58,918 nucleotides of DNA from Desulfobulbaceae bacterium. Its GTDB lineage: Bacteria; Desulfobacterota; Desulfobulbia; Desulfobulbales; BM004. The stretch spans positions 1 to 58,918 of the forward strand of contig PKTW01000020.1 in assembly GCA_002868955.1 (NCBI GenBank), read 5' to 3'. How positions within the stretch are numbered: position 1 is the stretch's first letter; every line of letters starts with the position of its first letter. Made by a program: the position numbers and the translations under genes. The notes beneath the pieces were generated by a model. That model made no database searches and was not told the origin of the DNA. It saw only the letters and a program-made list of their open reading frames with translations. This document shows positions 34,391 to 54,169 of the stretch, one piece after another.

Positions 34391-34395
34391 TTGTC

Positions 34396-35349
34396 TTACA
34401 CTCCACCCAAAATATGGACCTCAGGTTCAAGCTTGATGCCAAATCGTTTATAGACTTCCTGTTGCACAGTCTGCATGAGATGCAAGATGTCAGCGGCTGA
34501 AGCCTTGCCGGTATTTACAATGAAATTGGCATGCTTTTCGGAAATTTTTGCACCACCGACTGAAAATCCTTTTAGCCCTGCCTTTTCAATCAAGCGTCCG
34601 GCAGAGTCAGCCGGTGGATTTTTAAAGAAAGAACCGGCACTCGGTTCTGCAACAGGTTGATTTCTTCGGCGCAGTTCCTGGTATTTTCTGCATGTTGCTT
34701 TAATGACATCTTTACTGCCTGGTGTTAAACTAAACGTTGCCGAGAGCAGAATCATATTGTGTGGCAAGGACCATTTTCTGTAAAAAAATCCTAGATTTCT
34801 TCCTTGTTCAGGAAATATATCGCCATTGCTGTTCATGAGGAGAACCTCATCAACCAGGCTGCCAATTTCGTATCCCCAGGCTCCGGCATTCATGACAATT
34901 GCCCCGCCGATACTTCCCGGGATACCGACTCCAAATTCCAGGCCGGATAAATTCTGCGAAATGCAGTAATTCACAAGCTTGGGAAGCAGGCATCCTGCAC
35001 CGGCGCGGATGAGAACCTTTTCTTTTTTCCGGGTAATGCTCGAATTCATGAGTTTTTCAATAGATCTGAATTCCCCTTCCAGGATAATGACGACCCCCGC
35101 AAGTCCTGTATCAGGGACCAGAATGTTGCTGCCTCTGCCAACAATCCACCAGCCAATTTCATGCTTTTTCAACCAGAGGATCAATTTATTGAGTTCCTGG
35201 TTGTTCGTTACAGAAATAATAGCCTCTGCCGGTCCACCGACTTTGAGAGTAGAGAACTGCGACATGGGACTGTCCCATAAAATTCTACCCTGCCAGAAAC
35301 GATCAAGATCCCTTGCATGTGAATTAAGTCGCGCCATTATTTCAGTCAA
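34396..35349 (-). CDS. murB: UDP-N-acetylenolpyruvoylglucosamine reductase
   Basis: FAD-binding region (TLKVGGPAE...GRGSNILV) and the MurB C-terminal domain. Confidence 0.94.
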   Translation of the reverse strand: MTEIMARLNSHARDLDRFWQGRILWDSPMSQFSTLKVGGPAEAIISVTNNQELNKLILWLKKHEIGWWIVGRGSNILVPDTGLAGVVIILEGEFRSIEKLMNSSITRKKEKVLIRAGAGCLLPKLVNYCISQNLSGLEFGVGIPGSIGGAIVMNAGAWGYEIGSLVDEVLLMNSNGDIFPEQGRNLGFFYRKWSLPHNMILLSATFSLTPGSKDVIKATCRKYQELRRRNQPVAEPSAGSFFKNPPADSAGRLIEKAGLKGFSVGGAKISEKHANFIVNTGKASAADILHLMQTVQQEVYKRFGIKLEPEVHILGGV

Positions 35350-35359
35350 TCAACCTTTT

Positions 35360-36739
35360 TTAGTCCTGCAGCATTTTCAGCAGTTTTTCACCAGCCTGCC
35401 AGATGTTCCCGGCTCCCAATGACAAGACCACGTCACCAGGGGCAAGAATGTCCATGGCCTTGTCTAGGAGCTCGGAAAAACTTGGTTCAAAATAAGCATG
35501 TCTATGACCATGCTTCTTTATGCCATTTAACAGTGCTTCGGCAGTCACACCAGGGATTGGGGATTCGCTGGCACTGTATATTTCGGTTAAAAGAAGGATG
35601 TCAGCCTCATGAAAGGCTGTATAGAATTCTTCTGCCAAGGCCTTTGTTCTTGAATAGCGATGTGGCTGAAACAGAACCACAAGCCTGCGTTCAGGCCACG
35701 CATCACGTAGGGCGGAGAGGGTTGCCCGTATTTCAGTCGGATGATGTCCATAATCATCGACAACCGTAATGTCTCTCCTTTCTCCTTTAACTTGCAACCT
35801 GCGCTGCACCCCCGAAAAACTTTCTAAAGCAGCAGCAATAGTTGCAAACGGGATATCCAACTCCAACCCTACAGTGATGGCGGCTAAGGCATTGAATACA
35901 TTGTGTACTCCGGCCAGGGGAAGATTGACTTCACCAAGGACAACATTTTCTACGCAGACTTCAAACCGGGTGTTAAGCCCGGAAGTGTTAATTCCTTTGG
36001 CATAGACGTTTGCCTGGCTGGTCAGGCCATAGGTCAGGAATCTTTTCTTGACCTCGGGCAGGATAGAGGCAACGTGGGGATCGTCCAGGCAGAGGATGAC
36101 CGCGCCGTAAAAGGGAATTTTGTCGATGAAATCAAGAAATACAGCTTTGATCTGTTCAATTGAACTGTAGTAATCCAGGTGTTCTAGGTCAATGTTGGTA
36201 ACAACCTCAAGGACCGGGGCAAGCTTCAAAAAGGAGCCGTCCGATTCATCCGCCTCGGCAATGAGAAAGTCTCCTTCTCCCAGTTTGGCATTAATTCCCC
36301 CCAGACAGTCGACTTTACCACCGATTACAACGGTTGGATCAAGTCCTGCCTCGGCAAGAACCCAGGCCACCATGGATGTGGTCGTTGTTTTGCCGTGACT
36401 TCCGGCAATGGCGATACCGAACTTGGTGAGTCGCATCAGTTCTGCCAGCATCTCGGCCCTGGGAATGACGGGGATAAGAGAATTCACGGCAGCTTCGACT
36501 TCCGGGTTGTCAGCAGCAATGGCCGAGGAAATGACCACAACATCAGCTCCGTTTATCCAGGCGGCGTCATGGCCGATATGCAAGGTTCCGCCCAGGGCCT
36601 GCAGGCGGCGGGTTATGTCAGACTCCTGCAGGTCTGATCCGCTGATCCTGTAGCCAAGATTCAGCAACAGTTCTGCAATGCCGCTCATGCCGATACCGCC
36701 AATGCCTACGAAGTGTATATGTTTGCTTTTACTGTACAT
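35360..36739 (-). CDS. murC: UDP-N-acetylmuramate--L-alanine ligase
   Basis: [17 protein letters not shown] and the Mur ligase P-loop [11 protein letters not shown]. Confidence 0.96.
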
Positions 36740-36767
36740 TTTACGTGTTCTTACATTTATGCGTTTA

Positions 36768-37916
36768 TCAGAAGGCTAAAATTTTTCCACTATTCTCTGC
36801 TAATTTGTCTTTCATGAGTTCCATGCATATGCTGACTATCGTTCCTGTGGCTTCTGGTTTAGCAACCTTTCCAGAGTTTATTGACATTTCTGCCAGAAGT
36901 TTTGTGTCAGCCAGAAGTCGTGTTATTTCCATGCCGAGTTTTTTTCCGTCCAGTTCAGCTTGCCTGAACATGCGGGCACCACCTGCTTCGACAAGATAGC
37001 GACCGTTGATCTCCTGGTGATTGTCTGCAGCAAATGGAAACGGCACAAGAATTACAGGCTTGTGGAAAACTGTGAGTTCTGCCAGGGTGGTGGCTCCCGC
37101 TCGTGAGACGACAAGGTCGGCCTGGGAGTAAATCTCTGCCATGTCACTGAAAAATGCTTGCACCCTTGCATTGATCCCGAGTTCAGCATATTTTTGCCGT
37201 ACATGGATTTCGTCATGCTCACCCGTCTGGTGGATAATATTGGGTATCGGTGTACGATCGGCCAAAGAGCTTGCAGCTGCTTCAAGCATAAGGCTGTTCA
37301 AGCGCTGTGCGCCCTGACTGCCACCTAAAATCAAGAGTGTCAAGGGCTCCTGGTATTTTTTCTGGGCCACCTGGTTTGCTGTCTTTACAATTTTGCTGCG
37401 CACCGGATTGCCGCTTAATATGGTTTTTGCGGGTGAAAAATATTTTTCACTTCCAGGCAGAGAAACAAATATCCTGTCAGCTATATGGCCCAGCAGTCTG
37501 TTAGCCAGACCTGGTATGGAATTCTGTTCATGTATGCAGGTCGTGACACCCAGCAGACGGGCTGCGAGAATTACCGGCCCAGTTACATAGCCACCGACAC
37601 CAAAAACAAGATCTGGTCCGAATTTTCGGATAATCCTGACAGCTTCGAAAAGCGCTGCCGGTTGTTGCAGCATGGCCCGTATTTTTGCCGCCGCGTTTTT
37701 GCCTTTTATGCCCTGGCTTTTGATGGTCATGGCAACAAAACCGAGGTCAGCCAGGGCGGTTTTGTCCACCTTTCTTTCTGTACCGATAAAAAGCACCTCG
37801 CAGCCGGGATAGGTCTGCATCATGGCTTGGGCCAGGGAGATACCCGGAAAGAGATGGCCGCCGGTCCCACCGCCGGTTATGATAAGTCGCATGCAGTGTG
37901 CTTTTTCGTCTTTCAT
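36768..37916 (-). CDS. murG: Lipid II synthase MurG (UDP-GlcNAc transferase)
   Basis: [11 protein letters not shown] motif. The true start may be the internal Met (MRLIITGGG). Confidence 0.95.
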
Positions 37917-37917
37917 C

Positions 37918-39375
37918 TTACTGTACTGCTATATTTTGATTGGTACTGGCAGAATTTTTCCGCAGCCCAAGGACAGATTTCCTGAAAACATCGCCGCGTT
38001 CAGCATAACTTGAAAACATGTCAAAGCTCGCGCAGGCAGGCGACAGCAAAACAGCGTCACCAGGCGCAGCAAGACTTGCAGCTCTTAAAACCGCTTCCTG
38101 GAGAGTGTCGAGCATCTCTACATTGGTAAATGCCAGAAAGGCGCGGGCCATTGTGTCTTTTGCTTCACCTATAAGCAGCATATGTTTAACTTTTTGGCGG
38201 ACAGGCTCAACAAGGATTGAGTAATCTCCTCCCTTGTCCCTGCCGCCGGCAACAAGAATAACGGGTTGCTGCAAGGCTTCAAGGGCAGAGTAAACCGCCC
38301 CGACATTTGTAGCCTTTGAGTCATCGATATAGCTGACACCCCCAATCTCAGTCACCAGTGTCATGCGATGCTCAAGGGGTTTGAAGGAGGCAAGACCTTG
38401 TTGAATAGCCTGCTGCGGACAGCCCATAAGGCGGGCACCAAGAATTGCTGCAGCCGCATTTTGCAGGTTGGGGGAATTTTTAAAACCAGTGGCTGACAAT
38501 TCGTAAGACTCGCCATGTATGTTGTTTGGAAGCGTGGACGAACTGCTGTTTTTCAGATGAACAGTACAACCATGAATTGATGCGCCGGCAAGATCAGCGA
38601 GATGTTCGCCGAAAAAGAACCTTTGGCTTGCAGGCCAAAGGCTTCTGCGGTTCATGATCTCAGCGTCGTCAGCATTAAGTATTGCGTAATCATCAGGACC
38701 CTGGGCAGCAAAAATTGTGAATTTGGAATCCACGTATGATGCAAAAGAGGCATATCGTTCCAGGTGATCCGGTGTGATATTCAGCAGGATGGCGGTTTTA
38801 AAAGGCAGGCCTTTCTGGGAGCCGCCGGTATCCAGTTGAAAGCTGCTGACTTCAGCCACGACAATATCAGCATCCTGAGCACCGGAAATATAATCAAAAA
38901 GCGGGGTGCCGATATTGCCGCCGACAAAAACTTTACGGGCAGCAGCCTGGAAAATGTGGCCCAAGAGGGTGGTTACCGTGGTTTTGCCATTGGTACCTGT
39001 TACTGCAATTACAGGAGTCTGCATGAAATATGCCGCGACACCCAGTTCGCCAATGACGGGTATATTGAGGCGTCTGGCTTCATTCAGGGGTTTAATGGTA
39101 AGAGGGATTCCCGGACTGACGAATATAAGGTCAGCTGAGGTGAAAAGGTCAGGAGTATGCCCATCTGTCTCACAGAATATATTATTTCCCGTGAGCCATT
39201 CAATAAGTTCAGGGGATATGGAGCTTTTGCACGAGGATTCAGACACCGAGACTTTGGCACCATGCTGTAGGAAAAACCTGACTGCCGCCTGACCGGTTTT
39301 TCCTAAACCAACGACAACAACATGTTGGCCATGCAGTTCAAAGATGGTTTCCGGTTTTTCAAGTGATTTTGTCAT
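37918..39375 (-). CDS. murD: UDP-N-acetylmuramoylalanine--D-glutamate ligase
   Basis: VVVVGLGKTGQAA Rossmann-like N-terminus and P-loop GTNGKTTV. Confidence 0.95.
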   Translation of the reverse strand: MTKSLEKPETIFELHGQHVVVVGLGKTGQAAVRFFLQHGAKVSVSESSCKSSISPELIEWLTGNNIFCETDGHTPDLFTSADLIFVSPGIPLTIKPLNEARRLNIPVIGELGVAAYFMQTPVIAVTGTNGKTTVTTLLGHIFQAAARKVFVGGNIGTPLFDYISGAQDADIVVAEVSSFQLDTGGSQKGLPFKTAILLNITPDHLERYASFASYVDSKFTIFAAQGPDDYAILNADDAEIMNRRSLWPASQRFFFGEHLADLAGASIHGCTVHLKNSSSSTLPNNIHGESYELSATGFKNSPNLQNAAAAILGARLMGCPQQAIQQGLASFKPLEHRMTLVTEIGGVSYIDDSKATNVGAVYSALEALQQPVILVAGGRDKGGDYSILVEPVRQKVKHMLLIGEAKDTMARAFLAFTNVEMLDTLQEAVLRAASLAAPGDAVLLSPACASFDMFSSYAERGDVFRKSVLGLRKNSASTNQNIAVQ

Positions 39376-39409
39376 GTTAATTACAATTATTGCCGTAAAA
39401 AGTTGAGCT

Positions 39410-40489
39410 TTACCTGAGTTTTAAAGTTGCAAGGGCCAGCAGAGCAAGAATGATGGAAATGATCCAGAAGCGCACCACAACCTTTGGTTCGGCCCAGCCT
39501 TTTTTTTCAAAATGATGGTGAAACGGGGCCATGAGGAATACCCGCTTGCCCCCGGAAATCTTGAAAAAGCCTACCTGGATTATTACAGACAGGGCTTCCA
39601 TAACAAAAATACCACCAACAATTGCCAGCAAAATTTCCTGTTTCGTGATAATTGCAATGGTGCCCAGCGTTCCTCCCATGGCCAGTGAACCCACGTCACC
39701 CATGAACATCTGCGCTGGATAAGCATTGAACCATAGAAAACCAAGGGCACTGCCCACGAGTGCACCGCAATAAACAGCAAGCTCCCCGGAACCCGGCACA
39801 AAAGGTATCTGCAGGTAGTCTGACAAAACTGCATGGCCGGCCAGATAAGAAAACACAAGGTAAACTGAGCCGGTGATTATTATTGGTCCTGCAGCCAGGC
39901 CGTCCAACCCGTCAGTGAGATTTACAGCATTGGAAGATCCGACAATGACGAACATGGCGAAAATGACATAAAACCAGCCAAGGTCCGGTTTGAGAGCTTT
40001 AAAGAAGGGAACACTCAGATGTCCGTCGAAATTAGGGTGACTGTAAAGAATAACACCCAGGAGCAGGGCGCCGACTACCTGCAGGAGTAACTTGCCCCGA
40101 GCACTCAAACCTTTGCTGTTGTTTATGGTTATTTTTCTGAAATCATCAATGGCGCCGATTAAACCAAACCACAGCGTAACCCCTAATATGACCCAGACAT
40201 AACGGTTGCTAAGGTTGGCCCAGAGCAGGGTGGTGTTGATAATGGTAAAAATGAGAAGCATGCCGCCCATGGTCGGAATGCCTTCTTTCTTAAGGTGCGT
40301 TTCGGGGCCGTCGTTTCTGACCACCTGACCAATGTGCAGATTTCTGATAAAGCGAATAAAGGCTGGGGCAACCAGAACAAAGAAAAGAAATGCGGTGACT
40401 GCGGCTCCAATGGTCCGAAACGTGATGTAACGGAAAACATTGAAACCTGCAAATAGGGTGTTTAGTGGGTATAGGAAGTGGTATAGCAT
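39410..40489 (-). CDS. mraY: Phospho-N-acetylmuramoyl-pentapeptide transferase
   Basis: A polytopic membrane protein with [13 protein letters not shown] and [11 protein letters not shown]-type motifs. Confidence 0.96.
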
Positions 40490-40494
40490 GAGTT

Positions 40495-43400
40495 TTAGTT
40501 GCCCGCTCCCTTGAAAATGGAGTTTGTGTTATGTAGAAGTTCAAGTACTTCTTCCATGCGCATGCCCCTTGAGCCTTTAACTAAAAACCAATCACCGGAT
40601 TCGATCTTGCCCTCCTGTACTAATTTCTGCAGCCAGAAGGCCAGATCTTTCTTGCTGTTGAATCCTTTGGCCGCAGCCGGGTCCATGCCGGCATTTCTTG
40701 CACTTGTGACCATGTTTTCTGCCTGGTTGCCGAAAGCGGCCAGAAAGTCGATGCCAAGCCTTTGCACTGCAGTGCCCAAAGCCGTGTGAGCTTCATCAGT
40801 TTTAATGCCTAACTCCAGCATGTCGCCCAGAACAGCCACAGCCCGGCGGTTTTTTTTCAGGTCCACCAGGGTGTTAAGGGCAGCCAGCATTGATGCAGGG
40901 TTGGCATTATAACAGTCGTTTAGCACCCTTACGCCTGAAGGCAGCTCTTCAACGCGGGCCCGTTTGTCATGAGGCCTGAAAGCAGCAAGTCCACTGGTAA
41001 TTTCATCAATGCAGATGCCGGATCCGTGGGCCATTGCAGCTGCAGCAAGACTGTTTGTCACATTGTGCTTGCCCAGGCCCTGAATTGCGACCTGTCGTGT
41101 TTCTGTGCCGATATGGAGGCTAAATTTCATGCCGTTTTCACCCAGGCTTTGTATATTTGTTGCGCGAACAAGTGCATCCGGATGGCAGCCAAAGAATATT
41201 TTTTCCTGCCCTAATGCGGCAGCAAGAGAACTGACAATTTCGTCATCCAGGTTGACCGCGACCTTGCTCTCTGGTTTGAGGCCGGCAAAAAGTTCGTTCT
41301 TGGCTCGGGCCACTCCCCAGATATCTCCGAGACCTTCCAGGTGCGCCTCTTGAACGTTAATGATGCAGGCAACATCCGGATCGGCAATTTCCGTTAACCT
41401 GGCAATTTCACCTGGCCTGTTCATGCCCATTTCCAACACAGCTATCTCGTGCTCCGGTTCTAGTCTGAAAAGGGTTAAGGGCAGGCCGATCAGGTTATTG
41501 AAATTGCCTTCGGTTTTTAAAATTGCATGACTTTGACTGAGAATAGCCCCGACCATTTCCTTGACCGTGGTTTTACCGGAACTGCCGGTTATGGCAAGGA
41601 CCCGCAAATCATTATTCCAGCGCCGCAAATTGCCGGCGAGTTGACCGAGGGCGGCAAGTGTATCGGGCACCAGCAGGACAGGGGTGGACTGGTGAAAATC
41701 CATATCAGGTTGACTCTGGCCAGGGACGTGATTAATGAGAAGTCCGCTTGCCCCTTTTTGTATTGCTTTGCCGCAGAAGTTACTGCCATCAAAGTTTTCA
41801 CCTTTCAGGGCAACAAAGAGATCGCCGGCTTGAATTGTCCTGGTATCGGTAGAAATGTTCTTGAAGGTTACGGATTTTTCAAGGGGAAAGAGAAGTTGTG
41901 CGCCGGTGATCTGTTGCACCCATTCAAGTTTCCAGGCTGGGGGTGCGCCGGACTTTGCCTGCAGTTGCATTTCAGCTTCAATCCGATCATCGAAGAAAAT
42001 TGTTCCTTTTCTGTTAATCTGATAATTTTCATGCCCTTTGCCGCTGATGAGGACGACATCATCCGGTTTGGCAAATCTGATAGCAGTACTGACTGCAACG
42101 TGCCGGTTCACCAGGATGTCATATCCTTTTCCCTCCTGCCGTATGAGAGTTTCTGGAGCTGATACCTTTTTAAGGCCGCTACTGCATAGTCCCTCTTCAA
42201 TCTGTGCCAGTATCATATCAGGGGACTCGGAACGGGGATTATCTGAGGTTGCCAGCACCACATCGCACAGTTCGCCTGCAATTTGCCCCATAAGAACCCT
42301 TTTGCCGCGATCACGGTCGCCGCCGCAGCCAAAAACACAGACCAGCCGTTTGGGTTTGAGTTTCAGCAGGGCAGTCAATACATTTTCAAGGGCATCTGGA
42401 GTATGGGCGTAATCGATAAAAACTGCAGGGCAGGCTGCGGTTGTTTTTTCAAGCCCAACCCTTTCGAGCCTGCCGGGAATAGTTTTTACATCTTCCAGAC
42501 CATTTTTCATGCAGCCCGGCATTTCACCATGAGCTACACCAATACCGATGGCGCAGAGTATATTCCGTAGGTTGAATTCGCCAACCAGAGGAGTTGTCAG
42601 TGACATGGTCCAGGCAGGAGTTGTGATGTCAGAAGAAATGCCGTTGATGTCTATGGTGAAATCATGCGGGTGTATATCGCAGTCACGACTCATGCCACAT
42701 GTTATCATTAAAGGCGAATCTTCTCTGGTCTGAAACAAGGACAGCAACTCCGCATGCATCTGTTTACTCCAGTTATTGCTTTCACAGGATGCAGCGCTGT
42801 TATCCATTGCCTGATCTGCAGCAACATCAAGTACAATGACGATGCGGCCCCCGGGTTTTATATAATCGGTGAAAAGCAGTTTTTTGCTCGTGAAATAATG
42901 ATGCATGTCAGTGTGAAAATCCAGGTGGTCCCTGCTTAAATTGGTAAATACGCCTATATCAAATCCCAGTCCCGTAAGTCTTGACTGGGCCAGGGCATGT
43001 GACGATACTTCCATGACCACATCGGTGATATTCTCGTCAGCCATCGTGCGCAGCAATGCAAAGAGGGTAGGTGATTCCGGTGTTGTAAAAGGGGCTTCCA
43101 TTTCAATGTGCTTGTTGTTTTTGTCGTTATAGCGATAGTTGACGGTACCGATTACTCCCGGACGCCTGCCGCAGGCCTTTAACATGGACTCAACCAGAAA
43201 AGTTGTAGTTGTTTTGCCGTTTGTTCCTGTCACCCCGATCACGGTGAGTTGCCGGTCAGGATGGTCATAGTAGTTCGCCGCCACATTACCCAGGGCAGTT
43301 TTAGTATCAGTGACCTCCACTATTGCAACCCGGGGCCAATCCTCAGCACCCGGCGCGTATTCCTGCCAACCCTGATTTACCAATAGGGCGGAGCAACCTG

Positions 43401-43596
43401 CGGCAACTGCCTGGTCCAGATAGTTGTGCCCATCAACAGAAAGACCTTTAAGGGCGGCAAACATATTCCCAGGCTGAACCTTCCTTGAATCTGAACAAAG
43501 TCCGGTAATTTCAGTTTTTTCAAAATCTCCGGTGATGTTGTATTCTACTCCTTCAAGTAAGATTTTGAGTTGTTTTGCTGTTGTAAGTGCCGACAT
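40495..43596 (-). CDS. Fused MurE (meso-DAP-adding ligase) + MurF (D-Ala-D-Ala-adding ligase), 1033 aa
   Basis: N-terminal half: [13 protein letters not shown] and DNPRSE (MurE). The frame stays open through ...[36 protein letters not shown]... (around 41900-41990) into a second Mur ligase with [12 protein letters not shown] (MurF). Confidence 0.88.
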
Positions 43597-43639
43597 TAAT
43601 ATGATCCAAAAACCGGGCTGTTATTTGTCTGTACGTCGT

Positions 43640-45637
43640 TCATATTTCCTGCTGCATTTTCAGAACACATTCAGCACCGTTTTTAAGTTCAGTGCCGGCA
43701 GCAGGATATTGCGAAATTATTCTGCCATTGCCGACAAGCTTAATTTCCAGGTTGTAATGCTGGAGTACCTGCAGACCTGCCCGTAGACTTTTCCCGGTGA
43801 CGTCAGGCATATTTTTTTTGCTTTCAGTCGTTGCAGCAGGACTCTTTTTTTCAGATGCAAGAGTGTCTCTTCCCGTTGCTGAGGCAGTTCCTCCATTGGT
43901 CCAGAAATCTGGAGAAGGTACCAGGGGTGGGTGATCGGCCACATAGAGCATTTTTTTAATCATATCGTCATCCGGGCGCAGCACCGAGAATCTGTTCCCA
44001 GAGGATTTCAGTGCATCGGGATAAGCCGTATCAAAATTGTCCGGATACGAAAGCTGAGCGATCATGGTCAGTTTGGGGGCACTGCCGGGGATGGCCCCCA
44101 ACATTATACTTTGCCTGATGCGCGGACTTTGTTCGCTCGGCGCGACTGTATCAAGTTTCGCTTTTTTTTGTCCGGAATTCTCGGGTATTGCTGCAAAGCT
44201 GTGGGCTTCAAAAAACATTGGCACTCGTGGAGTTCTGCTTTCTCTTCTGTGTATTTTTAACCATTTGGCTGCAAGGAAATCTATTAAGTCTTCACTGGTG
44301 TCCGGATGCAGTGTAGCAGTATGTTCAGCTCCGGACAGGGTTGGTTCCACCGGGGTGGTATTTTCCTTTGGGTATACCTTGTTGAGCAGATGCGGGGAAA
44401 CAATCTTGCCATTATTCACAAGTGCCGTGAAACCGGTGAGAAGGCGCAGGGCAGACGAGTGAAATTCAGGATCAGTGAGAACAAGGGATGAGTCAATGAT
44501 AGCTTCATCCTTGAGAGGGAGGTCTGTCACTGGTTCTTCATCAAAACCTAAAAGTTGGGCAAAGTGGACAAAATAATCAGGATCAACAGTATCAACGAGT
44601 GGTGCAATGGATAATTCTTTTCTTTTAAAAATTTCCGGAGTAATGACCCGTAAAGGCTCTGCTTCATCCATGTTGTCTAGGGCCTGCGATTTGCGTTCAT
44701 TTTTGAAATTTATTGCAGCTGCCTGCTGGAATATTAGCGCAAGTTCGCCGGGATATAGTGGTTCGCTAACAACATTGTTATTGAGAGCGGAGCTGGAAAA
44801 CTCCCAATAACGATTTGGATTAAAAGCAGGATAACTGGCCATGGCAAGTATAGCGCCGGTATCGGCATCCATGAGGAGGAATGCACCGCTTTCAGCCCCG
44901 GTAATCTTAACCCTCTTTTTCAGAAAGTTTTCAATTTTGGACTGAAGCATCAGATCAAGGTTAAGTACCAGATGGGAGCCGTTCTGGCTGAGTTCTGACG
45001 CAGAACTAAAGTGCAGGGCTTTCAGTTCTGCACTGTTTATTTCATCTCCCCGCAGGAGCGTATTGTATTGGAATTCTATACCGTCGAGACCCTGATCATT
45101 TTCGACAAAGCCCACTGCATGTGCAGCTGTTTCATAATTAGGATAAAAACGACTTGTTTCAACAACCTGGTAAACACCCTTTATATTGCGTTCTTTTATG
45201 CGATCTGCCAGGCTTTGATCGATTCCCTTGGCAATCCAGACAAATCCCCGTTCACTTTTTAAGTTTGCCGAAAGCTTGTTTTGCTTCAACCCCAGGATTT
45301 CTTCCAGCAGGTTGGCAGAAGCAGCCGGGTCTTCCATTTCAAGGGGGCGGGCGTATATGGCATAGGTTTCATAGGTGGCGGCAAGGCGTCTGAAATTGCG
45401 GTCGTAAATGTCGCCCCTGGGGGAAGCTGCTTGAATCGGTGCCAGATTCTTTTCAGGTCTGTTTTGCTTGAGCCAGGTGAGAACTTCTGAGATGGCATAA
45501 AGTTTCTCTTTATGAAACAAGAAAGCCCCAGATCCTAAAATCAGGATAAGGGCCAGAAGAAGCAATACCTTCTTCTTTCTTATATTGAAGAGCGACATTC
45601 GTCGTCTCTGAAATTTTTTCTGCGCGTGATCAGTCAT
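43640..45637 (-). CDS. FtsI-like class B penicillin-binding protein homologue with degenerate transpeptidase motifs and a C-terminal PASTA domain
   Basis: TM anchor and PBP dimerisation domain (RGDIYDRN..., FYPNYETAAHAVGFV..GLDGIE). The transpeptidase-fold region has LYPGELALIF where xEPGSTxKP is expected (codons 44735-44746). I see no correctly placed SxN or KTG. The C-terminus MPDVTGKSLRAGLQVLQHYNLEIKLVGNGRIISQYPAAGTELKNG resembles PASTA. Confidence 0.8.
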   Translation of the reverse strand: MTDHAQKKFQRRRMSLFNIRKKKVLLLLALILILGSGAFLFHKEKLYAISEVLTWLKQNRPEKNLAPIQAASPRGDIYDRNFRRLAATYETYAIYARPLEMEDPAASANLLEEILGLKQNKLSANLKSERGFVWIAKGIDQSLADRIKERNIKGVYQVVETSRFYPNYETAAHAVGFVENDQGLDGIEFQYNTLLRGDEINSAELKALHFSSASELSQNGSHLVLNLDLMLQSKIENFLKKRVKITGAESGAFLLMDADTGAILAMASYPAFNPNRYWEFSSSALNNNVVSEPLYPGELALIFQQAAAINFKNERKSQALDNMDEAEPLRVITPEIFKRKELSIAPLVDTVDPDYFVHFAQLLGFDEEPVTDLPLKDEAIIDSSLVLTDPEFHSSALRLLTGFTALVNNGKIVSPHLLNKVYPKENTTPVEPTLSGAEHTATLHPDTSEDLIDFLAAKWLKIHRRESRTPRVPMFFEAHSFAAIPENSGQKKAKLDTVAPSEQSPRIRQSIMLGAIPGSAPKLTMIAQLSYPDNFDTAYPDALKSSGNRFSVLRPDDDMIKKMLYVADHPPLVPSPDFWTNGGTASATGRDTLASEKKSPAATTESKKNMPDVTGKSLRAGLQVLQHYNLEIKLVGNGRIISQYPAAGTELKNGAECVLKMQQEI

Positions 45638-45736
45638 GTAGCATTCTAAACTCCCATGCTTTGCTGCAAATATTTATTTTTATATTTACTGAATTATATC
45701 TGTATCTCCGGTGAACCGGTCAATGTATTGCTGCCT

Positions 45737-46105
45737 TTAAGGATAACGGATTTGGTTTTCCGCCGGGGATCGCAAACCGAGTTTTTGAGCAGCAGTCTCC
45801 ATTTGGTTGTGGGTCAGCATCAGGTCACGTTGCACAATCATCAGCCTCTTTTCTTTAAGCAATTGATTGTTGACAGATCTGTTGCTGCCGATTTGATCCA
45901 GGGCGACTTGCACCTGCAGGCCGTACCAGATAGTTGAACTGATGCCGATGATGACGGTTACCAGAAGCATGGCACCAATGGTTTTCAACATAAGTTTGGA
46001 TGGTTGAAAAAGATCCGTGAAGTCAGTGGAAGATTTTTTCTGCGAAATTTTTATTTTTTTCCTGCCGTTTGCCACAATAAACCCGCCAGAATAATCCTTG
46101 ATCAT
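45737..46105 (-). CDS. ftsL: Cell division protein FtsL-like
   Basis: 122 aa with a single TM helix (IGAMLLVTVIIGISSTIWYGL) followed by a coiled-coil-like segment. It sits between rsmH and ftsI. Confidence 0.7.
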   Translation of the reverse strand: MIKDYSGGFIVANGRKKIKISQKKSSTDFTDLFQPSKLMLKTIGAMLLVTVIIGISSTIWYGLQVQVALDQIGSNRSVNNQLLKEKRLMIVQRDLMLTHNQMETAAQKLGLRSPAENQIRYP

Positions 46106-46124
46106 TTTGAGTTCCTCCTCTTTC

Positions 46125-47084
46125 TCAACCTTTCATATATGCTGCCCGAAGCTTTGCACTTCTGGACCGTGGATTCATCCTGATCTCTTCTGCGTCCGGA
46201 ATTACAGGTTTTTTGGTTAATACATGCAGTTCAGGGTTGTCTTTGAATTTCCATTTTACCAACCGGTCTTCCAGGGAATGAAAGGCAATAATGCATATTC
46301 TGCCCCCGGGTTTAAGAATTTTTGTTATGGTATCGAGTAAAAGCGTCAGGTTATCAAGCTCTTTATTGACAGCAATTCGCAGGGCCTGGAAAACTTTTGT
46401 TGCCGCATGAATTTTCCGGGGTTGAAATTTTTTTGGAACGGCACCGGCAACAATGCGGGCAAGATGCGAGGTCGTTGCTATCCTTTTTTGGGCCCTTTCT
46501 GCAACTATATGTGCCGCTATGCGCCGGGCCTGCCTTTCTTCACCGTAGTAATAAAAAATATCTGCAAGGTCTTCCTGGCTCAAACTGTTTATTATATCTT
46601 CAGCATTTGGGTGTGAACGCTTATCCATTCGCATATCGAGTGGTCCGTCTATCTGGAAGCTGAAGCCTCTTTCCCCAGAATCAAACTGCAATGAAGAAAC
46701 ACCGAGATCCAATAACATCCCGTCCACTCTGTGAATATCTATTTCAGTCAGTCCAGCCATAATTTCAGCATAGTTCCGATGCAGGGCGCAAAATCTTTCC
46801 CCGAAAGGGGCGAGTCTTTTCCTGGCGAGTTCCAGGGCATTTGCATCACATTCAAAACCAATGACGCGGCCTGAGGGGCCGCAGGACTGCAAAATTTTTT
46901 CAGTATGTCCACCAAGGCCCAGGGTGCCGTCAATATATATTCCGCCATCAACCGGGGCTAGGAAGCGGATTACTTCTTCGAGAAGAACAGGGGTGTGGAT
47001 TTTAGAGGAAGAATCTGTATTTGAGAATTGAACCATGGGAGAGCAAGGCTTTTGGGCGTTAAGGTCGTTCCTCGCATTCGTCAC
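46125..47084 (-). CDS. rsmH: 16S rRNA (cytosine1402-N4)-methyltransferase
   Basis: HTPVLLEEV and the SAM motif DGTLGLGGH. The true start may be the internal Met (MVQFSN...). Confidence 0.94.
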   Translation of the reverse strand: MTNARNDLNAQKPCSPMVQFSNTDSSSKIHTPVLLEEVIRFLAPVDGGIYIDGTLGLGGHTEKILQSCGPSGRVIGFECDANALELARKRLAPFGERFCALHRNYAEIMAGLTEIDIHRVDGMLLDLGVSSLQFDSGERGFSFQIDGPLDMRMDKRSHPNAEDIINSLSQEDLADIFYYYGEERQARRIAAHIVAERAQKRIATTSHLARIVAGAVPKKFQPRKIHAATKVFQALRIAVNKELDNLTLLLDTITKILKPGGRICIIAFHSLEDRLVKWKFKDNPELHVLTKKPVIPDAEEIRMNPRSRSAKLRAAYMKG

Positions 47085-47095
47085 GGCATCTCCAA

Positions 47096-47575
47096 TTAAA
47101 GTATACCCAGGGCTGATAAGCTTTGTTCAAAATCGCTGAATTTGTCTCTGGTCATCTTTCTTTCCTTCTCCCAGGCACTTTTATCCCAGATTTCGAAGTG
47201 GTCAAGCATGCCGTTCAGCACCACATCTTTTTTCAAGTCGAAGTCCGTCCGCAGAGTAGGCGGCAGAAGGATTCTTCCTTGTTTGTCCAGGGTACATTCG
47301 CTCACACCGGAAATCACATAGCGCCTGAAAGAATCCATACCGGGCTGCTTTTTTCCCTGGACAAGCAGCGTTGTTTCAATGCGTTCCCAGACTTTGACAG
47401 GAAAAGCTTTCAAGCACATGTGCCAGTTTGTGACCATTAACTGCTCATTCTTCTGGTCCTGCATCACATCACGAAACCTGCTTGGAATATTCAGTCTTCC
47501 CTTCGCGTCCAGTGTGTGTTCCGAACGGCTGCGAAATCTGCTTTTCGATGCGTTGCTGTTGTCGGTTTTTGGCAC
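47096..47575 (-). CDS. mraZ: Transcriptional regulator MraZ
   Basis: GTG start after GAGGTGG. It has two SpoVT/AbrB-like repeats with LDAKGRLNIP and LDKQGRILLP. Confidence 0.92.
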   Translation of the reverse strand: MPKTDNSNASKSRFRSRSEHTLDAKGRLNIPSRFRDVMQDQKNEQLMVTNWHMCLKAFPVKVWERIETTLLVQGKKQPGMDSFRRYVISGVSECTLDKQGRILLPPTLRTDFDLKKDVVLNGMLDHFEIWDKSAWEKERKMTRDKFSDFEQSLSALGIL

Positions 47576-47859: not shown

Positions 47860-49854
47860 CTACCATTCAAGTCTGAGGATATTGCTTAAGGGGTCAACTT
47901 TTGCAAGTTTGACCAGCACGGTGTCGCCTGCTGTAACTTTAAAGGCAGGATTATGGGGCAGGTCTGCATCAAGAAGGAATTCTTCCAGGAAGATATGCAC
48001 TCGCTTGGGGCCGCTGTCAATAACAAGGGCAGGTAGTCTTTCTCCGCTTTTTGCCTGCAGGTATTTCAGTATCCAGTAGCGCTGGCGCAGATATTTGACC
48101 TGGTTGGCTTTTTCAAGGGTTGTCAGAATAATTGAGGCGAAATGTTTCATGTCTTTTTTGCTGAAGAGAATACCTTTGCCCATGCAAAGGTAACTGATCT
48201 GTAACTGCATGATCAGGTCAAGCAGACGCCGTATAGGAGAGGTGACGGTGGTGTATTGTGGTGCACCGACACAACTATGGCTCTTGGGAGTGGTCAGCAG
48301 CGACATGGGTGAGAGGCGTTTGCGTTGCTGCATGATTTTAAGAATATCCGTTTCAAAACCTTCGATTAGGCGTTGGCGTGGTTCAGCCTGGCAGCGGAAT
48401 AGTCCGGGAGCCTCGCGTTCAGCAACGAACTGGGCCCCAAGCGTATTTGCAAGAATCATAAATTCTGCAACAAGAATTCTGCTTGGGGTATCAACAGCAG
48501 ACCGTTTAATTTCAATGCTGTCATCTGCCGTGATCCTGATATGTAATTCCGGCATGGGCAGAAGTATCGCCCCGCGATTCACGCGCCTTTGCCGCAATAA
48601 TACACTCAAGGCTGCCAGGGCAGCCAATGCTTGGTTCTGTTTGACCAACTGATCCGCAACCTGGTATGTCAGTTGTTGTTTCACAGATATGATACTTCGA
48701 ACGATTTCAAAGTTGAGAACTTCCGCTGCGGGACTGAGCAAGACCAGAAAACTGAGTGCGGGGCGTATCTGATCTTTCAAGAGACTTAATTTGTCTTCAG
48801 CAAGGGCTGCAGGTAGCATGGGGTAATGTTTTTCAGGAAAATAGATTGAAGTGCCCCGCGTCAGCGCTTCTTCAAAAAGAGCGGTTCCCTGTTTTACATA
48901 AAGACCGACATCGGAGATATGAATACCCACAAGGTAGTTGGCGCCCTGTTTTTCAATGTGGAGCGCGTCATCAAAATCCCGGGTCTCAGGCCCATCAATG
49001 GTTAAAATCTGCAAGTCCCGGAGATCCCTTCTGTCAGCGGCAGGCAGATCAGCCTCATTTTGGAGCTTTATTTTTTCGACTTCGGCCAGGGCTTTTTCAG
49101 AAAACAAAGTAGGTATATCCTGTTTGCGAAGTTGAATATTTTCGTTTTTATCCCAGAATCCTGTCATTACCAGCAGGTAAAAAATATCATGGGGGCCGGT
49201 CAGTTCAGCTTTTTTAACAAGTTTGCGTGCCATATCCGACTCGGAAGAATCCTTGCCGAAAAGGTAGTAATCAGCAAGTATTTGCAGGATGGAATCCCGG
49301 TCTTTCCAATCTTCTGAGGATTCGCCGTTTTTGTAAAGACGACGCAGGGCAGCGGTATTCTCGGCAATAAAAATTTCCTGTTCTTTATCTTTTTTCTGTT
49401 GCAGTTTTAGCTGTTCAACGGTTTCAGGGGAATGGACAAGAATACTGCCGGCTTTGTATTTGAAATAGACCCGGTTGCCAATTACTGCCCGCATGAAGGC
49501 CGCGCACTGATCATCCGAGGGATCATTGCCGAAATAAAGGCTTGCCATAAAGTCGACCCCCAAAGCATCTTCATGTTTATCAGAGACAATTTCCCAGATC
49601 TCATCAAGATCGATGCCTGCCGTCAGCACAGCCCGTTTTTTAGCGGTTTTTTGCAGGAAGGTTATGATATCTTCCCTGGTAGAAAATGATGCAGCCTTTT
49701 CATTTGTGCAGTGGACTATCCTGTTTGGGGCTAAGTTGAGTTCCCGGCTGTTCTGGTTGAGTAAATGAAGACGAGTGCCATTATCTTCATTGACATAGGC
49801 GCAGATGAATTTGCCGTTTTCCAGATATTCGACTATTCTGCCGTTTAATGTCAT
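47860..49854 (-). CDS. RNase II/R family 3'-5' exoribonuclease
   Basis: 664 aa. The RNB catalytic region has TIDGPETRDFDDALH and a C-terminal S1-like domain. Confidence 0.85.
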   Translation of the reverse strand: MTLNGRIVEYLENGKFICAYVNEDNGTRLHLLNQNSRELNLAPNRIVHCTNEKAASFSTREDIITFLQKTAKKRAVLTAGIDLDEIWEIVSDKHEDALGVDFMASLYFGNDPSDDQCAAFMRAVIGNRVYFKYKAGSILVHSPETVEQLKLQQKKDKEQEIFIAENTAALRRLYKNGESSEDWKDRDSILQILADYYLFGKDSSESDMARKLVKKAELTGPHDIFYLLVMTGFWDKNENIQLRKQDIPTLFSEKALAEVEKIKLQNEADLPAADRRDLRDLQILTIDGPETRDFDDALHIEKQGANYLVGIHISDVGLYVKQGTALFEEALTRGTSIYFPEKHYPMLPAALAEDKLSLLKDQIRPALSFLVLLSPAAEVLNFEIVRSIISVKQQLTYQVADQLVKQNQALAALAALSVLLRQRRVNRGAILLPMPELHIRITADDSIEIKRSAVDTPSRILVAEFMILANTLGAQFVAEREAPGLFRCQAEPRQRLIEGFETDILKIMQQRKRLSPMSLLTTPKSHSCVGAPQYTTVTSPIRRLLDLIMQLQISYLCMGKGILFSKKDMKHFASIILTTLEKANQVKYLRQRYWILKYLQAKSGERLPALVIDSGPKRVHIFLEEFLLDADLPHNPAFKVTAGDTVLVKLAKVDPLSNILRLEW

Positions 49855-51101: not shown

Positions 51102-52457
51102 TTACTTATCGGCACCCTGCCCGGAAAGCACATTCAGGCTTTTGAGAACAAGCAGTGCGGTGCTGAGCTGGTTGTCGTCCTTGAGCTTTTCTTTTGTTGC
51201 CTCTTCAATCGTGACCTTATCTGAAATCAAGTTGCTTTCATCGATGGTCGGAGGCTGGGGTTTCTCATCTGCAGGTTGCAAGTCGCCTCCATTTTCAAGG
51301 TGATGCCGCAAATCCTTTTCCCTGAAAAATTCCCCGGGTCCCTTTGGGGTGTCTTCTTCAGCAGCAACACTTTTAGGAACAAGAACATCGGGGGTAATAC
51401 CGGTTGCCTGGATGGAGGTTCCGCTTGGCGTATAATACCGTGCAGTAGTGAGTCGCAGTCCGGCACCGTCGGCCATGGGGATGATGGTCTGCACAGAGCC
51501 CTTACCAAAGGACTGGGTGCCAAGAATGAGTGCTCTTTTATGATCCTGCAGGGCTCCGGCCACAATCTCTGATGCAGAGGCAGTGCCGCCGTTTATCAAA
51601 ATGACTATGGGGAAATCGTATTCCGCTCCGCCGCTGTGTGCTGAAAATTCCATATTCTGGTCTTGAAGACGGCCCTTGGTGGAAACAATAATGCCTTCAT
51701 CCAGAAAAATGTCCACGATCTTTACCGAAGAATCCAGAAGCCCCCCCGGGTTATTACGCAGGTCAAGAACTAATCCTTTAAGAGCTCCTTCTTTAATTAG
51801 GTCTTCAAGGCTGTTCTGTAGGTCCTGAGAGGTGTTTCTCTGGAAGTTGGTGATCCGGATATATCCGTATCCGGTTTCAAGAACACTGTCGCGCACAGAG
51901 TGAATCGGTATTACGTCCCTGATAATGGTAAACTCCTGCAGGTCTGTCCAGTCTTCGCGATGAATTGAAATGGTGACCTCAGAACCTTTTTGCCCACGTA
52001 GTTTTTTTATAGCGTCAAGTAATGACATTTCCTTGGTGGATTCGCCCTCAATCTTAATGATCCTGTCTCCTGCCTGGATGCCTGCCTTGAAGGCAGGAGT
52101 GTCCTCAATGGGCGAGACAACGGTAAGCATGTCGTCCTTGAGGGTAATTTCAATACCAATGCCGCTGAAAGTGCCCGTAGTTTCGACCTGGAGTTCCTTG
52201 AAATCATCCGGTTTTAAAAAGGAGGAATGGGGGTCCAGGCTTGTGAGCATTCCCTTAATTGCTCCCTCAATGGTTTCCTGCGTGTCAATGTCATCGACAT
52301 AATTCTGTTGGACGATGCTGAGGACATTTGCGAAGACCTCGAGATTCTTATAGGTTTCCTGCGCATCATCATATGATTCCAGGGCCTGAAGGTTCCTGGC
52401 AAAGAATAGAGGGAGAATAAGAAGCGTGATGGGGAGAACTTTTTTAAACGTAATCAT
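51102..52457 (-). CDS. ctpA: S41 family C-terminal processing peptidase
   Basis: Signal peptide, PDZ domain (GIQAGDRIIKIEG), catalytic Ser in GGTASASEI and Lys in SFGKGSVQ. Confidence 0.9.
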   Translation of the reverse strand: MITFKKVLPITLLILPLFFARNLQALESYDDAQETYKNLEVFANVLSIVQQNYVDDIDTQETIEGAIKGMLTSLDPHSSFLKPDDFKELQVETTGTFSGIGIEITLKDDMLTVVSPIEDTPAFKAGIQAGDRIIKIEGESTKEMSLLDAIKKLRGQKGSEVTISIHREDWTDLQEFTIIRDVIPIHSVRDSVLETGYGYIRITNFQRNTSQDLQNSLEDLIKEGALKGLVLDLRNNPGGLLDSSVKIVDIFLDEGIIVSTKGRLQDQNMEFSAHSGGAEYDFPIVILINGGTASASEIVAGALQDHKRALILGTQSFGKGSVQTIIPMADGAGLRLTTARYYTPSGTSIQATGITPDVLVPKSVAAEEDTPKGPGEFFREKDLRHHLENGGDLQPADEKPQPPTIDESNLISDKVTIEEATKEKLKDDNQLSTALLVLKSLNVLSGQGADK

Positions 52458-52776
52458 AGTATTCCTGTCTGTAGGGGCCTTTTAATGCGGGGAATATGAG
52501 GATTTTATCGGCCAAAAAGAAATTTGTTCAGTTTTGCAACTACACGAAGTGTTATGCATAAAATTATTACGTTATCATGCTGTACATCTTCAAACAATAT
52601 AATATTAAGCTGCGGAAAGTCCAACAATGAATAGTGCAGAATATAAATTTTACCGTTTAGCTGACCGCTTGTCCGCGCTAACAAGTGAATTTAGCAGCGA
52701 GGAGCAAGGATAAAAACAGACAAGAGTTGGTAATAAGGCCGCCTTGCAACAAGAGTTCTATTTTCGAAACATTCTA

Positions 52777-54168
52777 TCAGGGAAGCAATTGGACTTTCTG
52801 GGTTGAGGTTTCGAGTGGTAGGGCGTCATTTTTTAGCCACAACATGGGATCCTCAGGGGTTGAGCCCTTGCGAATTTCAAAATGAAGACCCTTGCCGTAA
52901 AGAGGATCTCCTTCACCCGTCATGCCAATAATCTCTCCGGTTGTGACTTTTTCACCTTCCTTTTTGTAAAAGTCAGCTGCCCTCGAAATGAGTGAGAAGT
53001 ACTGTTGCCCATGGTCAATGATAAGGAGATTTCCATAGCCGCGCAGGTAGCCTGAATGGATAATCTTGCCATCGTAAACAGCCTTGATTTCCTCACCTTT
53101 TTTTACTCTGATATCGATCCCATCCGCTATGGTGAATGAATCAAACTTGCCCGGGACTTTTTGTCTGAAAAAAGTGATAACAGCTCCAGGGACAGGGGGA
53201 TCGAGTAATCCTTTCCGGCCTGGAAAACCTTCTTGGACAACGGCTTTTTCTTGCGGCAGTTTTTTCTTAGCTGTATCAATTAGGCGCACAGGTTGTGGCG
53301 CAGCTGGCTGTGGTTGGGATGCTGCCTGCAGCCTTTGCAAGGTTTCAGCCAGATCAGTAGCTGCTTCTTCAATTTCCAAAACAGCTTGTTCATAAAGATG
53401 CTGTTCTGTGTTTACCTGTTTGAGAAGGTAGCTTTTTTCTTCGCGAATCCGGGTAAACTGTAATTCATTTTCGCTTACTTCATTCGCCAGTTTCATAAGG
53501 CGCAATTTTTCCCGCGCATGTTCCTCCCGGGCAATATTCGACGCCTTGAGCTGGGCGAGATATTCCTGGATAATGGCATGGTCATGCTGCACCATGAGGC
53601 TAAAATACTCTTTAAAATCAAGAAGTTCCGGCAGTGATTCTGAAGCAAATACGACATTCATCAGTCCGACTGAACCCATGCGGTAATAGGATGCCAGCCT
53701 GTTTTTTACATGCACCTGATGTGCCCTTTTTTCAGCGAGGACCTGCTTGAGGTACTCCTGTTTGTCAGCGAGGAGTAATTCCTGCTTTTCAGTTTCTGCC
53801 CGGAGGGAGGCAAGCATATTTTTTTGAGCCTCGAGCTCCCTTTCAATTTTTTCCAGTTCTCCAAGCAGGTTTCTTTCCTTTTTTCTGGAATCGAGGATTT
53901 TTATTTTATGATCAATTATGCCTTCCTGCAGTTTCCGGATTGTGGCATTTTTTTCTATTATTTCCTGTTGTTGTTCTTTCGTGAGTTTATTGCGGTTAGA
54001 TTCTTGCGGATTGTCCGGAGAATTTGCTTCCTGGGCATAAGCGATGTGGTTGATGCCTGTTCCAGGAAAACTGCTGGGAATAAAAGAGCAGGCAGATACG
54101 AGTGAAAAAAACAAGACGCGCACCGGCTTTATAGCATATATCTTCAATGTGTGACGCAGGATTCTCAT
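52777..54168 (-). CDS. envC: EnvC-like murein hydrolase activator (coiled coil + degenerate LytM/M23 domain)
   Basis: A long coiled-coil region followed by an M23 fold in which the first metal ligand is lost (ADGIDI instead of HxGxD) and HxH is reduced to GLHFE. It lies directly downstream of ftsEX. Confidence 0.82.
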   Translation of the reverse strand: MRILRHTLKIYAIKPVRVLFFSLVSACSFIPSSFPGTGINHIAYAQEANSPDNPQESNRNKLTKEQQQEIIEKNATIRKLQEGIIDHKIKILDSRKKERNLLGELEKIERELEAQKNMLASLRAETEKQELLLADKQEYLKQVLAEKRAHQVHVKNRLASYYRMGSVGLMNVVFASESLPELLDFKEYFSLMVQHDHAIIQEYLAQLKASNIAREEHAREKLRLMKLANEVSENELQFTRIREEKSYLLKQVNTEQHLYEQAVLEIEEAATDLAETLQRLQAASQPQPAAPQPVRLIDTAKKKLPQEKAVVQEGFPGRKGLLDPPVPGAVITFFRQKVPGKFDSFTIADGIDIRVKKGEEIKAVYDGKIIHSGYLRGYGNLLIIDHGQQYFSLISRAADFYKKEGEKVTTGEIIGMTGEGDPLYGKGLHFEIRKGSTPEDPMLWLKNDALPLETSTQKVQLLP

Positions 54169-54169
54169 G

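Follow-up and report, generated by a model that had tools for sequence, protein, structure and literature searches.

The dcw gene cluster on a contig of a Desulfobulbaceae bacterium (PKTW01000020.1, assembly GCA_002868955.1; the entire 58,918-nt stretch is hereinafter designated the window) encodes an FtsI orthologue, hereinafter designated FtsI*, that keeps the penicillin-binding transpeptidase fold but, as judged by alignment, carries none of the three penicillin-binding motifs. The motif loss recurs in every full-length FtsI that we compared from Desulfobulbales-type genomes and goes together with the absence of ftsW from the cluster, suggesting that Desulfobulbales probably build their septum with a different enzyme. 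We propose, with a probability of roughly 0.7, that FtsI* is a non-catalytic divisome scaffold and that septal synthesis is carried out by another synthase.

Loss of the three penicillin-binding motifs

An earlier note on this DNA had described an intact 665-aa FtsI homologue of the dcw cluster with a canonical membrane anchor and dimerisation domain, and had read it as having lost all three penicillin-binding motifs. The open reading frame (ORF), which lies on the minus strand (a point that the note left unstated) and comprises 665 codons, is indeed intact, and its identity is supported by Pfam and by profile-profile alignment. It is flanked by an ftsL-like gene and a murE-murF fusion in a complete dcw cluster; its place between ftsL and murE is constant in all related loci. 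The anchor corresponds to a hydrophobic segment within the long N-terminal helix of an AlphaFold2 (AF2) model, and the dimerisation domain (the pedestal) to a clear Pfam match (Table 1). The Pfam Transpeptidase match (PF00905) covers residues 251-297 only (profile positions 1-43 of 299), and FtsI* passes none of the NCBIfam models for FtsI, PBP2 and SpoVD, with best scores of 141 bits (cutoff 688), 116 bits (cutoff 455) and 97.9 bits (cutoff 737), the last for the FtsI model NF011685. Relatives of FtsI* are named ‘PASTA domain-containing protein’ or ‘hypothetical’ by NCBI.

The motif positions were located by three kinds of alignment, namely phmmer against the PDB, MAFFT with canonical relatives, and profile-profile hhalign. 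In phmmer alignments with FtsI/PBP3 structures, PGELAL pairs with PGS(I/T)xK and the longer segment EPLYPGELALIF pairs with DVFEPGS(I/T)xK. MAFFT places E298 on the nucleophilic serine and L301 on the lysine. A 69-sequence family profile aligns with 14 canonical FtsI at a probability of 100% (E 3e-87) over 581 columns spanning residues 54-664; here the Ser and Lys columns again fall on E298 and L301, the SxN columns on a gap/R339, K340 and E341 (with Asn on E341), and the K-[TS]-G columns on I484-P485-(E)-N487. The R339-K340-E341 region is also where MAFFT puts the SxN columns. The three methods thus agree that all three motifs are gone from FtsI*, at the level of sequence and profile alignment.

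String searches give the same picture. The only SxxK strings in the whole of FtsI* are the three already pointed out in the earlier note, SGQK (488), SAPK (519) and SEKK (595), all of them misplaced; SxN strings occur only in the pedestal (107, 123 and 217) or at 546, and no K[ST]G string is found in the entire 665 residues. All peptides on which the motif reading had drawn are present in the protein, including ILAMASYPAFNPN (residues 263-275), YPGELAL (295-301), ALRLLTGFTALVNNGKIVSPHLL (396-418), FEAHSF (476-481) and SIMLGAIPGSAPKLTMIAQLSYP (510-532), and E298-L301 are encoded at 44735-44746, as had been reported. One detail has to be revised: TVDPD had been taken as the equivalent of SxN, but hhalign puts SxN about 11 residues further upstream, at K340-E341, which leaves the conclusion that no SxN remains in place. 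The segment DPDYFVHFAQLLGFDEEPVTDLP instead pairs with the canonical helix and loop LYxxLxxFGFGxxTGIDLPGE downstream of SxN, DPDYFVHFAQLLGF being aligned by hhalign with the helix after SxN (canonical LYxxLxxFGFG).

A retained fold under purifying selection

The AF2 model, built on the family alignment, has a mean predicted local distance difference test score (pLDDT) of 76 and a predicted template modelling score (pTM) of 0.69, with core helices and strands above 90. Low confidence is limited to loops, including residues 322-341 (the old SxN site) and 486-503 (the region after KTG). The top Foldseek matches in the PDB are penicillin-binding proteins of class B (bPBPs), namely PBP2x, SpoVD, Pseudomonas aeruginosa PBP3 and the FtsWIQBL complex 8bh1, with E-values of about 1e-29 over about 550 columns. 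Together with the hhalign alignment of the whole domain, this shows that FtsI* keeps the recognisable bPBP fold despite the motif loss.

Could the unusual motif be an artefact, arising from a sequencing or assembly error around 44700-44760, or the mark of a recently inactivated, decaying pseudogene? Among 95 full-length or nearly full-length homologues (44-99% identity) collected from independent JGI, ENA, NCBI and Logan assemblies, all carry YPGELxLIFQQAA and none carries SxxK. The FtsI* protein itself had no identical match when looked up in public assemblies. The recurrence of identical substitutions in all 95 homologues excludes chance and sequencing error. Synteny is unchanged around a relative on an 868-kb contig, and the ORF is intact.

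Selection was gauged by simple pairwise Nei-Gojobori estimates of dN/dS (ω) between the window and one relative (L004; 84% identical, dS 0.35). The whole gene gives an ω of 0.225, with 0.15 for the pedestal, 0.23 for the transpeptidase-like domain and 0.17 for the PASTA domain; the comparators in the cluster give 0.21 (MurE-F), 0.16 (RsmH), 0.11 (MurC) and 0.05 (MraY). With values similar to that of MurE-F, FtsI* is under selection about as strict as that on a genuine enzyme of the same operon, indicating that it is selectively maintained rather than decaying, and the per-domain values of 0.15-0.23 fit the idea of a retained pseudo-enzyme put forward in the earlier note. With 95 intact homologues sharing the motif, an ω of about 0.2 and nothing in favour of an error or a pseudogene, we regard that explanation as refuted, its residual probability being negligible.

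Distribution of the degenerate FtsI across Desulfobulbales

When the genomes of GTDB species were scanned, one per species, 78 loci were obtained, and the FtsI homologue and its neighbours were extracted from each. All 43 full-length FtsI from Desulfobulbales-type genomes are without SxxK, SxN and KTG, and the gene is kept in the cluster at all 43 loci; these come from records under the names Desulfobulbaceae, Desulfurivibrionaceae, Desulfocapsa, Ca. Desulfatifera, Desulfopila or Thermodesulfobacteriota, among them the cultured Hydrosulfovibrio ferrireducens CB1MN. All three motifs are kept in 36/36 FtsI of other lineages (Acidobacteriota, Zixibacteria, Desulfobacterales, Desulfovibrionales and other ‘Deltaproteobacteria’). 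A neighbour-joining tree built from the pedestal groups the degenerate proteins, which are 25-33% identical between families, in one clade; without bootstrap, it makes a single origin likely but does not prove it. By these comparisons of sequence, the motif loss characterises the Desulfobulbales lineage as a whole and is not the peculiarity of one genome.

The near invariance of YPGELxLIFQQAA in the 95 homologues, down to 44% identity, and the non-neutral ω of the transpeptidase-like domain (0.23) could be taken to mean that the transpeptidase-fold domain now uses the region of Glu298 for some other catalysis or for ligand binding, for example as a receptor for peptidoglycan or lipid II or as a hydrolase with a carboxylate nucleophile. 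We consider such a function improbable, given that the glutamate is not conserved across the order: outside the near family, the former SxxK site reads PGGLNG, DLGAMERL, NPGGISGI or LPDSLRRY. Moreover, the old SxN and KTG loops are variable and modelled with low confidence, and the transpeptidase domain is the least conserved periplasmic domain of the clade.

In two divergent members, one residue of motif 1 survives. The Ca. Desulfatifera protein (L039, 9995-11902) still has Ser at the nucleophile column (SLRR), and the Desulfopila protein (L077, 5167-6990) still has Lys at the Lys column (VLRK); both are without SxN and KTG. In most Desulfobulbales families outside the near family, the old SxN site is S-x-E, mostly S-P-E.

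Absence of ftsW from the cluster

The usual site of ftsW in the dcw cluster, between murD and murG, is closed in the window to a single nucleotide. The murD-murG gap measures -226 to 363 bp in all 28 degenerate-FtsI loci that reach murG and 860-1222 bp in all 15 canonical loci in which both genes were detected. The gap ORFs of the canonical loci are PF01098 SEDS proteins, and a SEDS gene stands at the ftsW position in 19/19 canonical-FtsI loci extending past murD. When ORFs were searched with a profile hidden Markov model (HMM) built from these gap ORFs, and the DNA by six-frame tblastn, no SEDS homologue was found in the 59-kb window or, out to 10 kb, at any of the 43 degenerate loci, and no ftsW remnants were detected in the 240-363 bp murD-murG spacers that some Desulfobulbales loci possess. 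The same gene order without ftsW surrounds the relative on the 868-kb contig, which is 63% identical, and is also seen in Desulfurivibrio sp. D14AmB. Across the loci compared, the form of FtsI tells without exception whether ftsW is present in the cluster, and the coupling of the degenerate FtsI with the absence of ftsW from the cluster is clade-wide.

A different explanation is that ftsW has merely been relocated, the degenerate FtsI still acting as its allosteric activator while another transpeptidase cross-links in trans, like the arrangement of Bacillus subtilis PBP2b. SEDS glycosyltransferases require the bPBP pedestal for activity, and the pedestal is, after PASTA, among the two best-conserved regions of the degenerate proteins; the source genome, moreover, is seen through a 59-kb window only. 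In known complexes, however, the main SEDS-binding surface is the transmembrane (TM)/N-terminal region, whose identity relative to that of the pedestal is 0.47 in the degenerate form versus 0.67 in canonical FtsI, a difference that carries little weight because this region aligns poorly. A location of ftsW outside the dcw cluster has a precedent in Bacilli (PMC10693644), but the window contains no SEDS gene, nor do the 10-kb surroundings of the 43 degenerate loci. Independently, Geerlings et al. (2021; PMC7873302) report, from annotation and blastp, that the genomes of two Ca. Electrothrix and two Desulfobulbus species lack ftsW, ftsN and zipA and have mreBCD, pbpA and rodA in one cluster. Taken together, these observations make a relocated ftsW unlikely and favour its loss along with the catalytic motifs of FtsI*.

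According to the same text, FtsI is present in those four genomes and is treated as an active enzyme (PMC7873302). FtsI of Desulfobulbus propionicus or Ca. Electrothrix was not among the matches listed in our profile search.

The PASTA domain and the shift of constraint

The PASTA domain of FtsI* forms a unit of α-helix and β-strand at residues 618-662 of the AF2 model. The earlier note had regarded this domain as gained; the comparison with canonical FtsI contradicts this. In 31/36 canonical relatives residues are aligned through the C-terminal PASTA columns, the sources of PASTA-bearing canonical FtsI being Desulfovibrionales, Acidobacteriota, Zixibacteria and other ‘Deltaproteobacteria’, and several catalytically intact matches carry PF03793; for Maridesulfovibrio ferrireducens FtsI, Pfam confirms both a full transpeptidase domain and PASTA. 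Since the PASTA domains of canonical relatives align with that of FtsI*, the domain is ancestral, and a gain of PASTA together with the inactivation was rejected.

What has changed is the distribution of constraint. Mean pairwise identities of the pedestal, transpeptidase domain and PASTA are 0.38, 0.41 and 0.31 in canonical FtsI and 0.44, 0.28 and 0.48 in the degenerate clade, and as the two sets differ in phylogenetic breadth, only the ratios between regions are meaningful. The transpeptidase/pedestal ratio falls from 1.09 in canonical FtsI to 0.64 in the degenerate form, and the PASTA/pedestal ratio rises from 0.83 to 1.11. Within the degenerate clade PASTA has the highest mean identity of four regions, followed by the pedestal; among the three periplasmic domains, the transpeptidase domain comes last. 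Residues invariant in the family concentrate in the pedestal, the first strands of the transpeptidase domain and PASTA. The alignments thus point to a shift in constraint, with PASTA relatively more conserved in the degenerate form.

Candidate septal synthases

No other penicillin-binding protein (PBP) is encoded in the window. A search for a second PBP near the cluster found class A PBPs only, beside mraZ at two loci, L009 (304-2391, minus strand) and L010 (3261-5279, minus strand), where the gene divergently adjoins mraZ/rsmH; both clusters have a degenerate FtsI and are without ftsW. The catalytic motifs of both class A PBPs are intact (GT51 motifs, PGSAFKP, SRN and KTGT). Orthologues of this protein (PBP1A) share 57-66% identity across Desulfobulbaceae, Desulfurivibrionaceae and Thiovibrio, far above the conservation of the degenerate FtsI. 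Of 120 orthologues, at least 110 satisfy strict criteria for the GT51 motifs and for SxxK, SxN and KTG, showing that an intact PBP1A is conserved across the order. In one assembly, that of Desulfurivibrio sp. D14AmB (GCA_044068625.1), the degenerate FtsI occurs together with an intact PBP1A and a dcw cluster from which ftsW is missing.

PBP1A and the single remaining SEDS-bPBP pair, RodA-PBP2, known from the published genomes, are therefore candidates, alone or together, for the septal synthase. That septal cross-linking would fall to another enzyme had been suggested in the earlier note; the suggestion is reasonable, and is strengthened by the missing ftsW between murD and murG.

Gene context and other features of the window

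The coordinates of ftsI*, its domains and former motif sites, and its cluster are given in Table 1. The ftsL-like gene directly upstream evolves faster than its neighbours (ω 0.39). The literature describes ftsL as seemingly absent from many Desulfobulbaceae; the weak Pfam match and the fast evolution of the gene suggest that ftsL may simply be too divergent for annotation.

Table 1 Features of ftsI* and its surroundings in the window.
Feature	Position	Strand	Evidence
ftsI*, without SxxK, SxN and KTG	43640-45637	-	ORF calls, Pfam, hhalign against canonical FtsI, AF2 model, Foldseek
N-terminal membrane anchor, residues ~24-42, VLLLLALILILGSGAFLFH	45512-45568	-	19-mer of greatest hydrophobicity, mean Kyte-Doolittle 2.5
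Pedestal / PBP dimerisation domain, residues 71-198	45044-45427	-	PF03717, 54.9 bits (cutoff 24.4); ω 0.15
Transpeptidase-fold domain without catalytic residues, residues ~249-585	43883-44893	-	whole domain aligned by hhalign and Foldseek; ω 0.23
Former SxxK tetrad, now E298-L299-A300-L301	44735-44746	-	phmmer, MAFFT, hhalign; YPGELxLIFQQAA kept in 95 homologues
Former SxN site, now R339-K340-E341	44615-44623	-	hhalign, MAFFT; low-confidence loop, pLDDT <50 at 322-341
Former β3/KTG region, residues 476-487, FEAHSFAAIPEN; K-T-G columns I484-P485-N487	44177-44212	-	hhalign
C-terminal PASTA domain, residues ~607-662	43652-43819	-	PF03793, 35.8 bits (cutoff 23.2), match 610-656; ω 0.17
ftsL-like gene, 122 aa, directly upstream of ftsI*	45737-46105	-	weak PF04999, E 0.0074, below cutoff; position kept in related loci
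murD stop / murG start junction, usual ftsW site, 1 nt between genes	37914-37920	-	ORFs 37918-39375 and 36768-37916; Pfam MurD, MurG
dcw cluster: mraZ, rsmH, ftsL-like, ftsI*, murE-murF fusion, mraY, murD, murG, murC, murB, ftsQ, ftsA, ftsZ	30997-47575	-	Pfam and NCBIfam

On the other side of ftsI*, murE and murF are fused in a 1033-aa ORF (40495-43596, minus strand; NCBIfam PRK11929, 958 bits). The fusion is shared by loci L001-L005, L011, L039, L045, L052 and L077, and the genes are separate in most other Desulfobulbales loci; MurE-MurF chimeras have already been described (PMC10214165). Directly upstream of mraZ lies an exoribonuclease of the RNase II/R family with N-terminal winged-helix/helix-turn-helix domains (47860-49854, minus strand), and close upstream of the cluster, at 51102-55773 (minus strand), are ftsE, ftsX, an M23 (EnvC-like) peptidase and an S41 C-terminal processing protease (CtpA-like). 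Both the position of the exoribonuclease and the ftsE-ftsX-M23-S41 arrangement recur in the 63%-identical relative (L079).

Elsewhere in the window, a 389-aa ORF at 26255-27424 (plus strand) joins a YbeY endoribonuclease domain (residues 18-145) to a complete PdxJ pyridoxine-5'-phosphate synthase domain (155-388), an unusual fusion of unrelated functions. The glutamyl-tRNA synthetase ORF at 3676-5517 (minus strand) is 613 aa long with its catalytic domain starting only at residue 123, so that either the N terminus is extended or the ORF was called too long, from a GTG upstream.

Discussion

The observations above are consistent with the following scheme. FtsI* would be a pseudo-enzyme unable to form an acyl-enzyme, and hence could neither cross-link peptidoglycan nor bind β-lactams. 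The motifs were probably lost once, in the ancestor of Desulfobulbales, together with ftsW, the gene for the glycosyltransferase partner. FtsI* would have been preserved for what its non-catalytic parts still contribute to division. Its anchor and pedestal most likely secure its place in the late divisome beside FtsQ and FtsL, whose genes both remain in the cluster; the transpeptidase-fold domain may serve as a rigid spacer, and the strongly conserved PASTA domain may bind newly made peptidoglycan, lipid II or a protein partner. Septal polymerisation and cross-linking would then be performed by a synthase that the FtsI* scaffold recruits or regulates.

Several points weigh against this scheme. 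The motif placement comes from sequence and profile alignments, and Foldseek speaks to the fold as a whole rather than to the residue-level geometry of the cleft. The strong conservation of YPGELxLIFQQAA within the near family means that the old cleft could still bind something. The localisation of FtsI* and its protein partners are entirely what we infer. For the source genome, the absence of ftsW covers the 59-kb window, so that ftsW could have moved to a place outside it, or another intact bPBP of the divisome be encoded there, and the published absence of ftsW concerns four genomes other than those whose FtsI sequences are compared here. Finally, the adjacency of the PBP1A gene and the dcw cluster is confined to two lineages and is absent in Thiovibrio sp. 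JS02 (L080) and Desulfurivibrio sp. D14AmB (L081), which makes it a hint rather than a rule.

Among known systems, the best sequence and structure matches of FtsI* are FtsI/PBP3 of the FtsWIQLB complex (Escherichia coli and P. aeruginosa; PDB 8bh1, 3pbn and 7onw), with which it shares the dcw position, anchor, pedestal and fold. It differs from them in lacking the three motifs, in the short Pfam transpeptidase match (43 of 299 positions), in having no ftsW in its cluster, and in its C-terminal PASTA domain, a feature of many non-proteobacterial FtsI. The four-part architecture is shared with the canonical PASTA-bearing FtsI of other Desulfobacterota, Acidobacteriota and Zixibacteria (e.g., M. 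ferrireducens, P0111), at a profile-level identity of 22% over 581 columns. Unlike FtsI*, these proteins keep PGSxxK, SxN and KTG, with a PF00905 score of 239 bits in M. ferrireducens, and have ftsW between murD and murG.

A precedent for an essential non-catalytic divisome bPBP, with cross-linking supplied by another PBP, is provided by B. subtilis PBP2b and Staphylococcus aureus PBP1. The accessible text of a survey of bPBPs reports, citing earlier work, that both proteins are required and their transpeptidase activity is dispensable, in the case of PBP2b when PBP3 is present (Sassine et al. 2017, cited in PMC12516126). PBP2b and PBP1 are naturally active, however, their inactivation being engineered and their FtsW partner being present, whereas the inactivation of FtsI* would be natural, ancient and clade-wide, with ftsW gone from the cluster. 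Clostridioides difficile, which divides without FtsW/FtsI, driven by the class A PBP1 (PMC10693644), resembles the arrangement proposed here in having an FtsZ-based divisome without a functional FtsW-FtsI synthase and a class A PBP as the candidate replacement. It is, however, a Gram-positive spore-former whose dcw-encoded pair has been reused for sporulation and is still catalytically active, whereas Desulfobulbales are diderm, keep a dead FtsI and lack the SEDS gene in the cluster. The cable bacteria and Desulfobulbus strains of Geerlings et al. belong to the same order and, in the accessible text, have the same dcw cluster without ftsW and an FtsI listed as present (PMC7873302).

As far as the searchable literature shows, the order-wide degenerate FtsI and its coupling to the loss of ftsW have not been reported, save for the passing note of the missing ftsW. 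We found no prior report of the motif loss there, and the accessible text of the 2025 global bPBP survey (PMC12516126) mentions neither Desulfo- or Thermodesulfobacteriota nor active-site motifs. The degenerate proteins also pose an annotation problem, being variously named FtsI, ‘PASTA domain-containing protein’ or ‘hypothetical’.

To our knowledge, FtsW-FtsI is seen as the near-universal, essential septal synthase and a major antibiotic target, and Clostridia are the only well-documented exception among FtsZ-dividing walled bacteria. At about even odds, the present findings extend further, to a division apparatus of the whole order Desulfobulbales, cable bacteria included, in which FtsZ, FtsA, FtsQ and FtsL would operate without a SEDS-bPBP septal synthase, FtsW having been lost and FtsI having become a PASTA-bearing, non-catalytic adaptor through which a class A PBP or RodA-PBP2 takes over the making of septal wall. 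On that wider reading, Desulfobulbales would be the first diderm lineage so arranged, a natural experiment in which what FtsI does as a scaffold is set apart from what it does as an enzyme. The model of division in cable bacteria, which assumes FtsI activity, would be corrected accordingly. If the scaffold interpretation of FtsI* is true for this whole order of free-living diderm bacteria, a divisome bPBP can go on scaffolding or regulating after its chemistry is gone, septal synthesis can be reassigned in Gram-negative bacteria, and Desulfobulbales should be intrinsically insensitive to FtsI-specific β-lactams.

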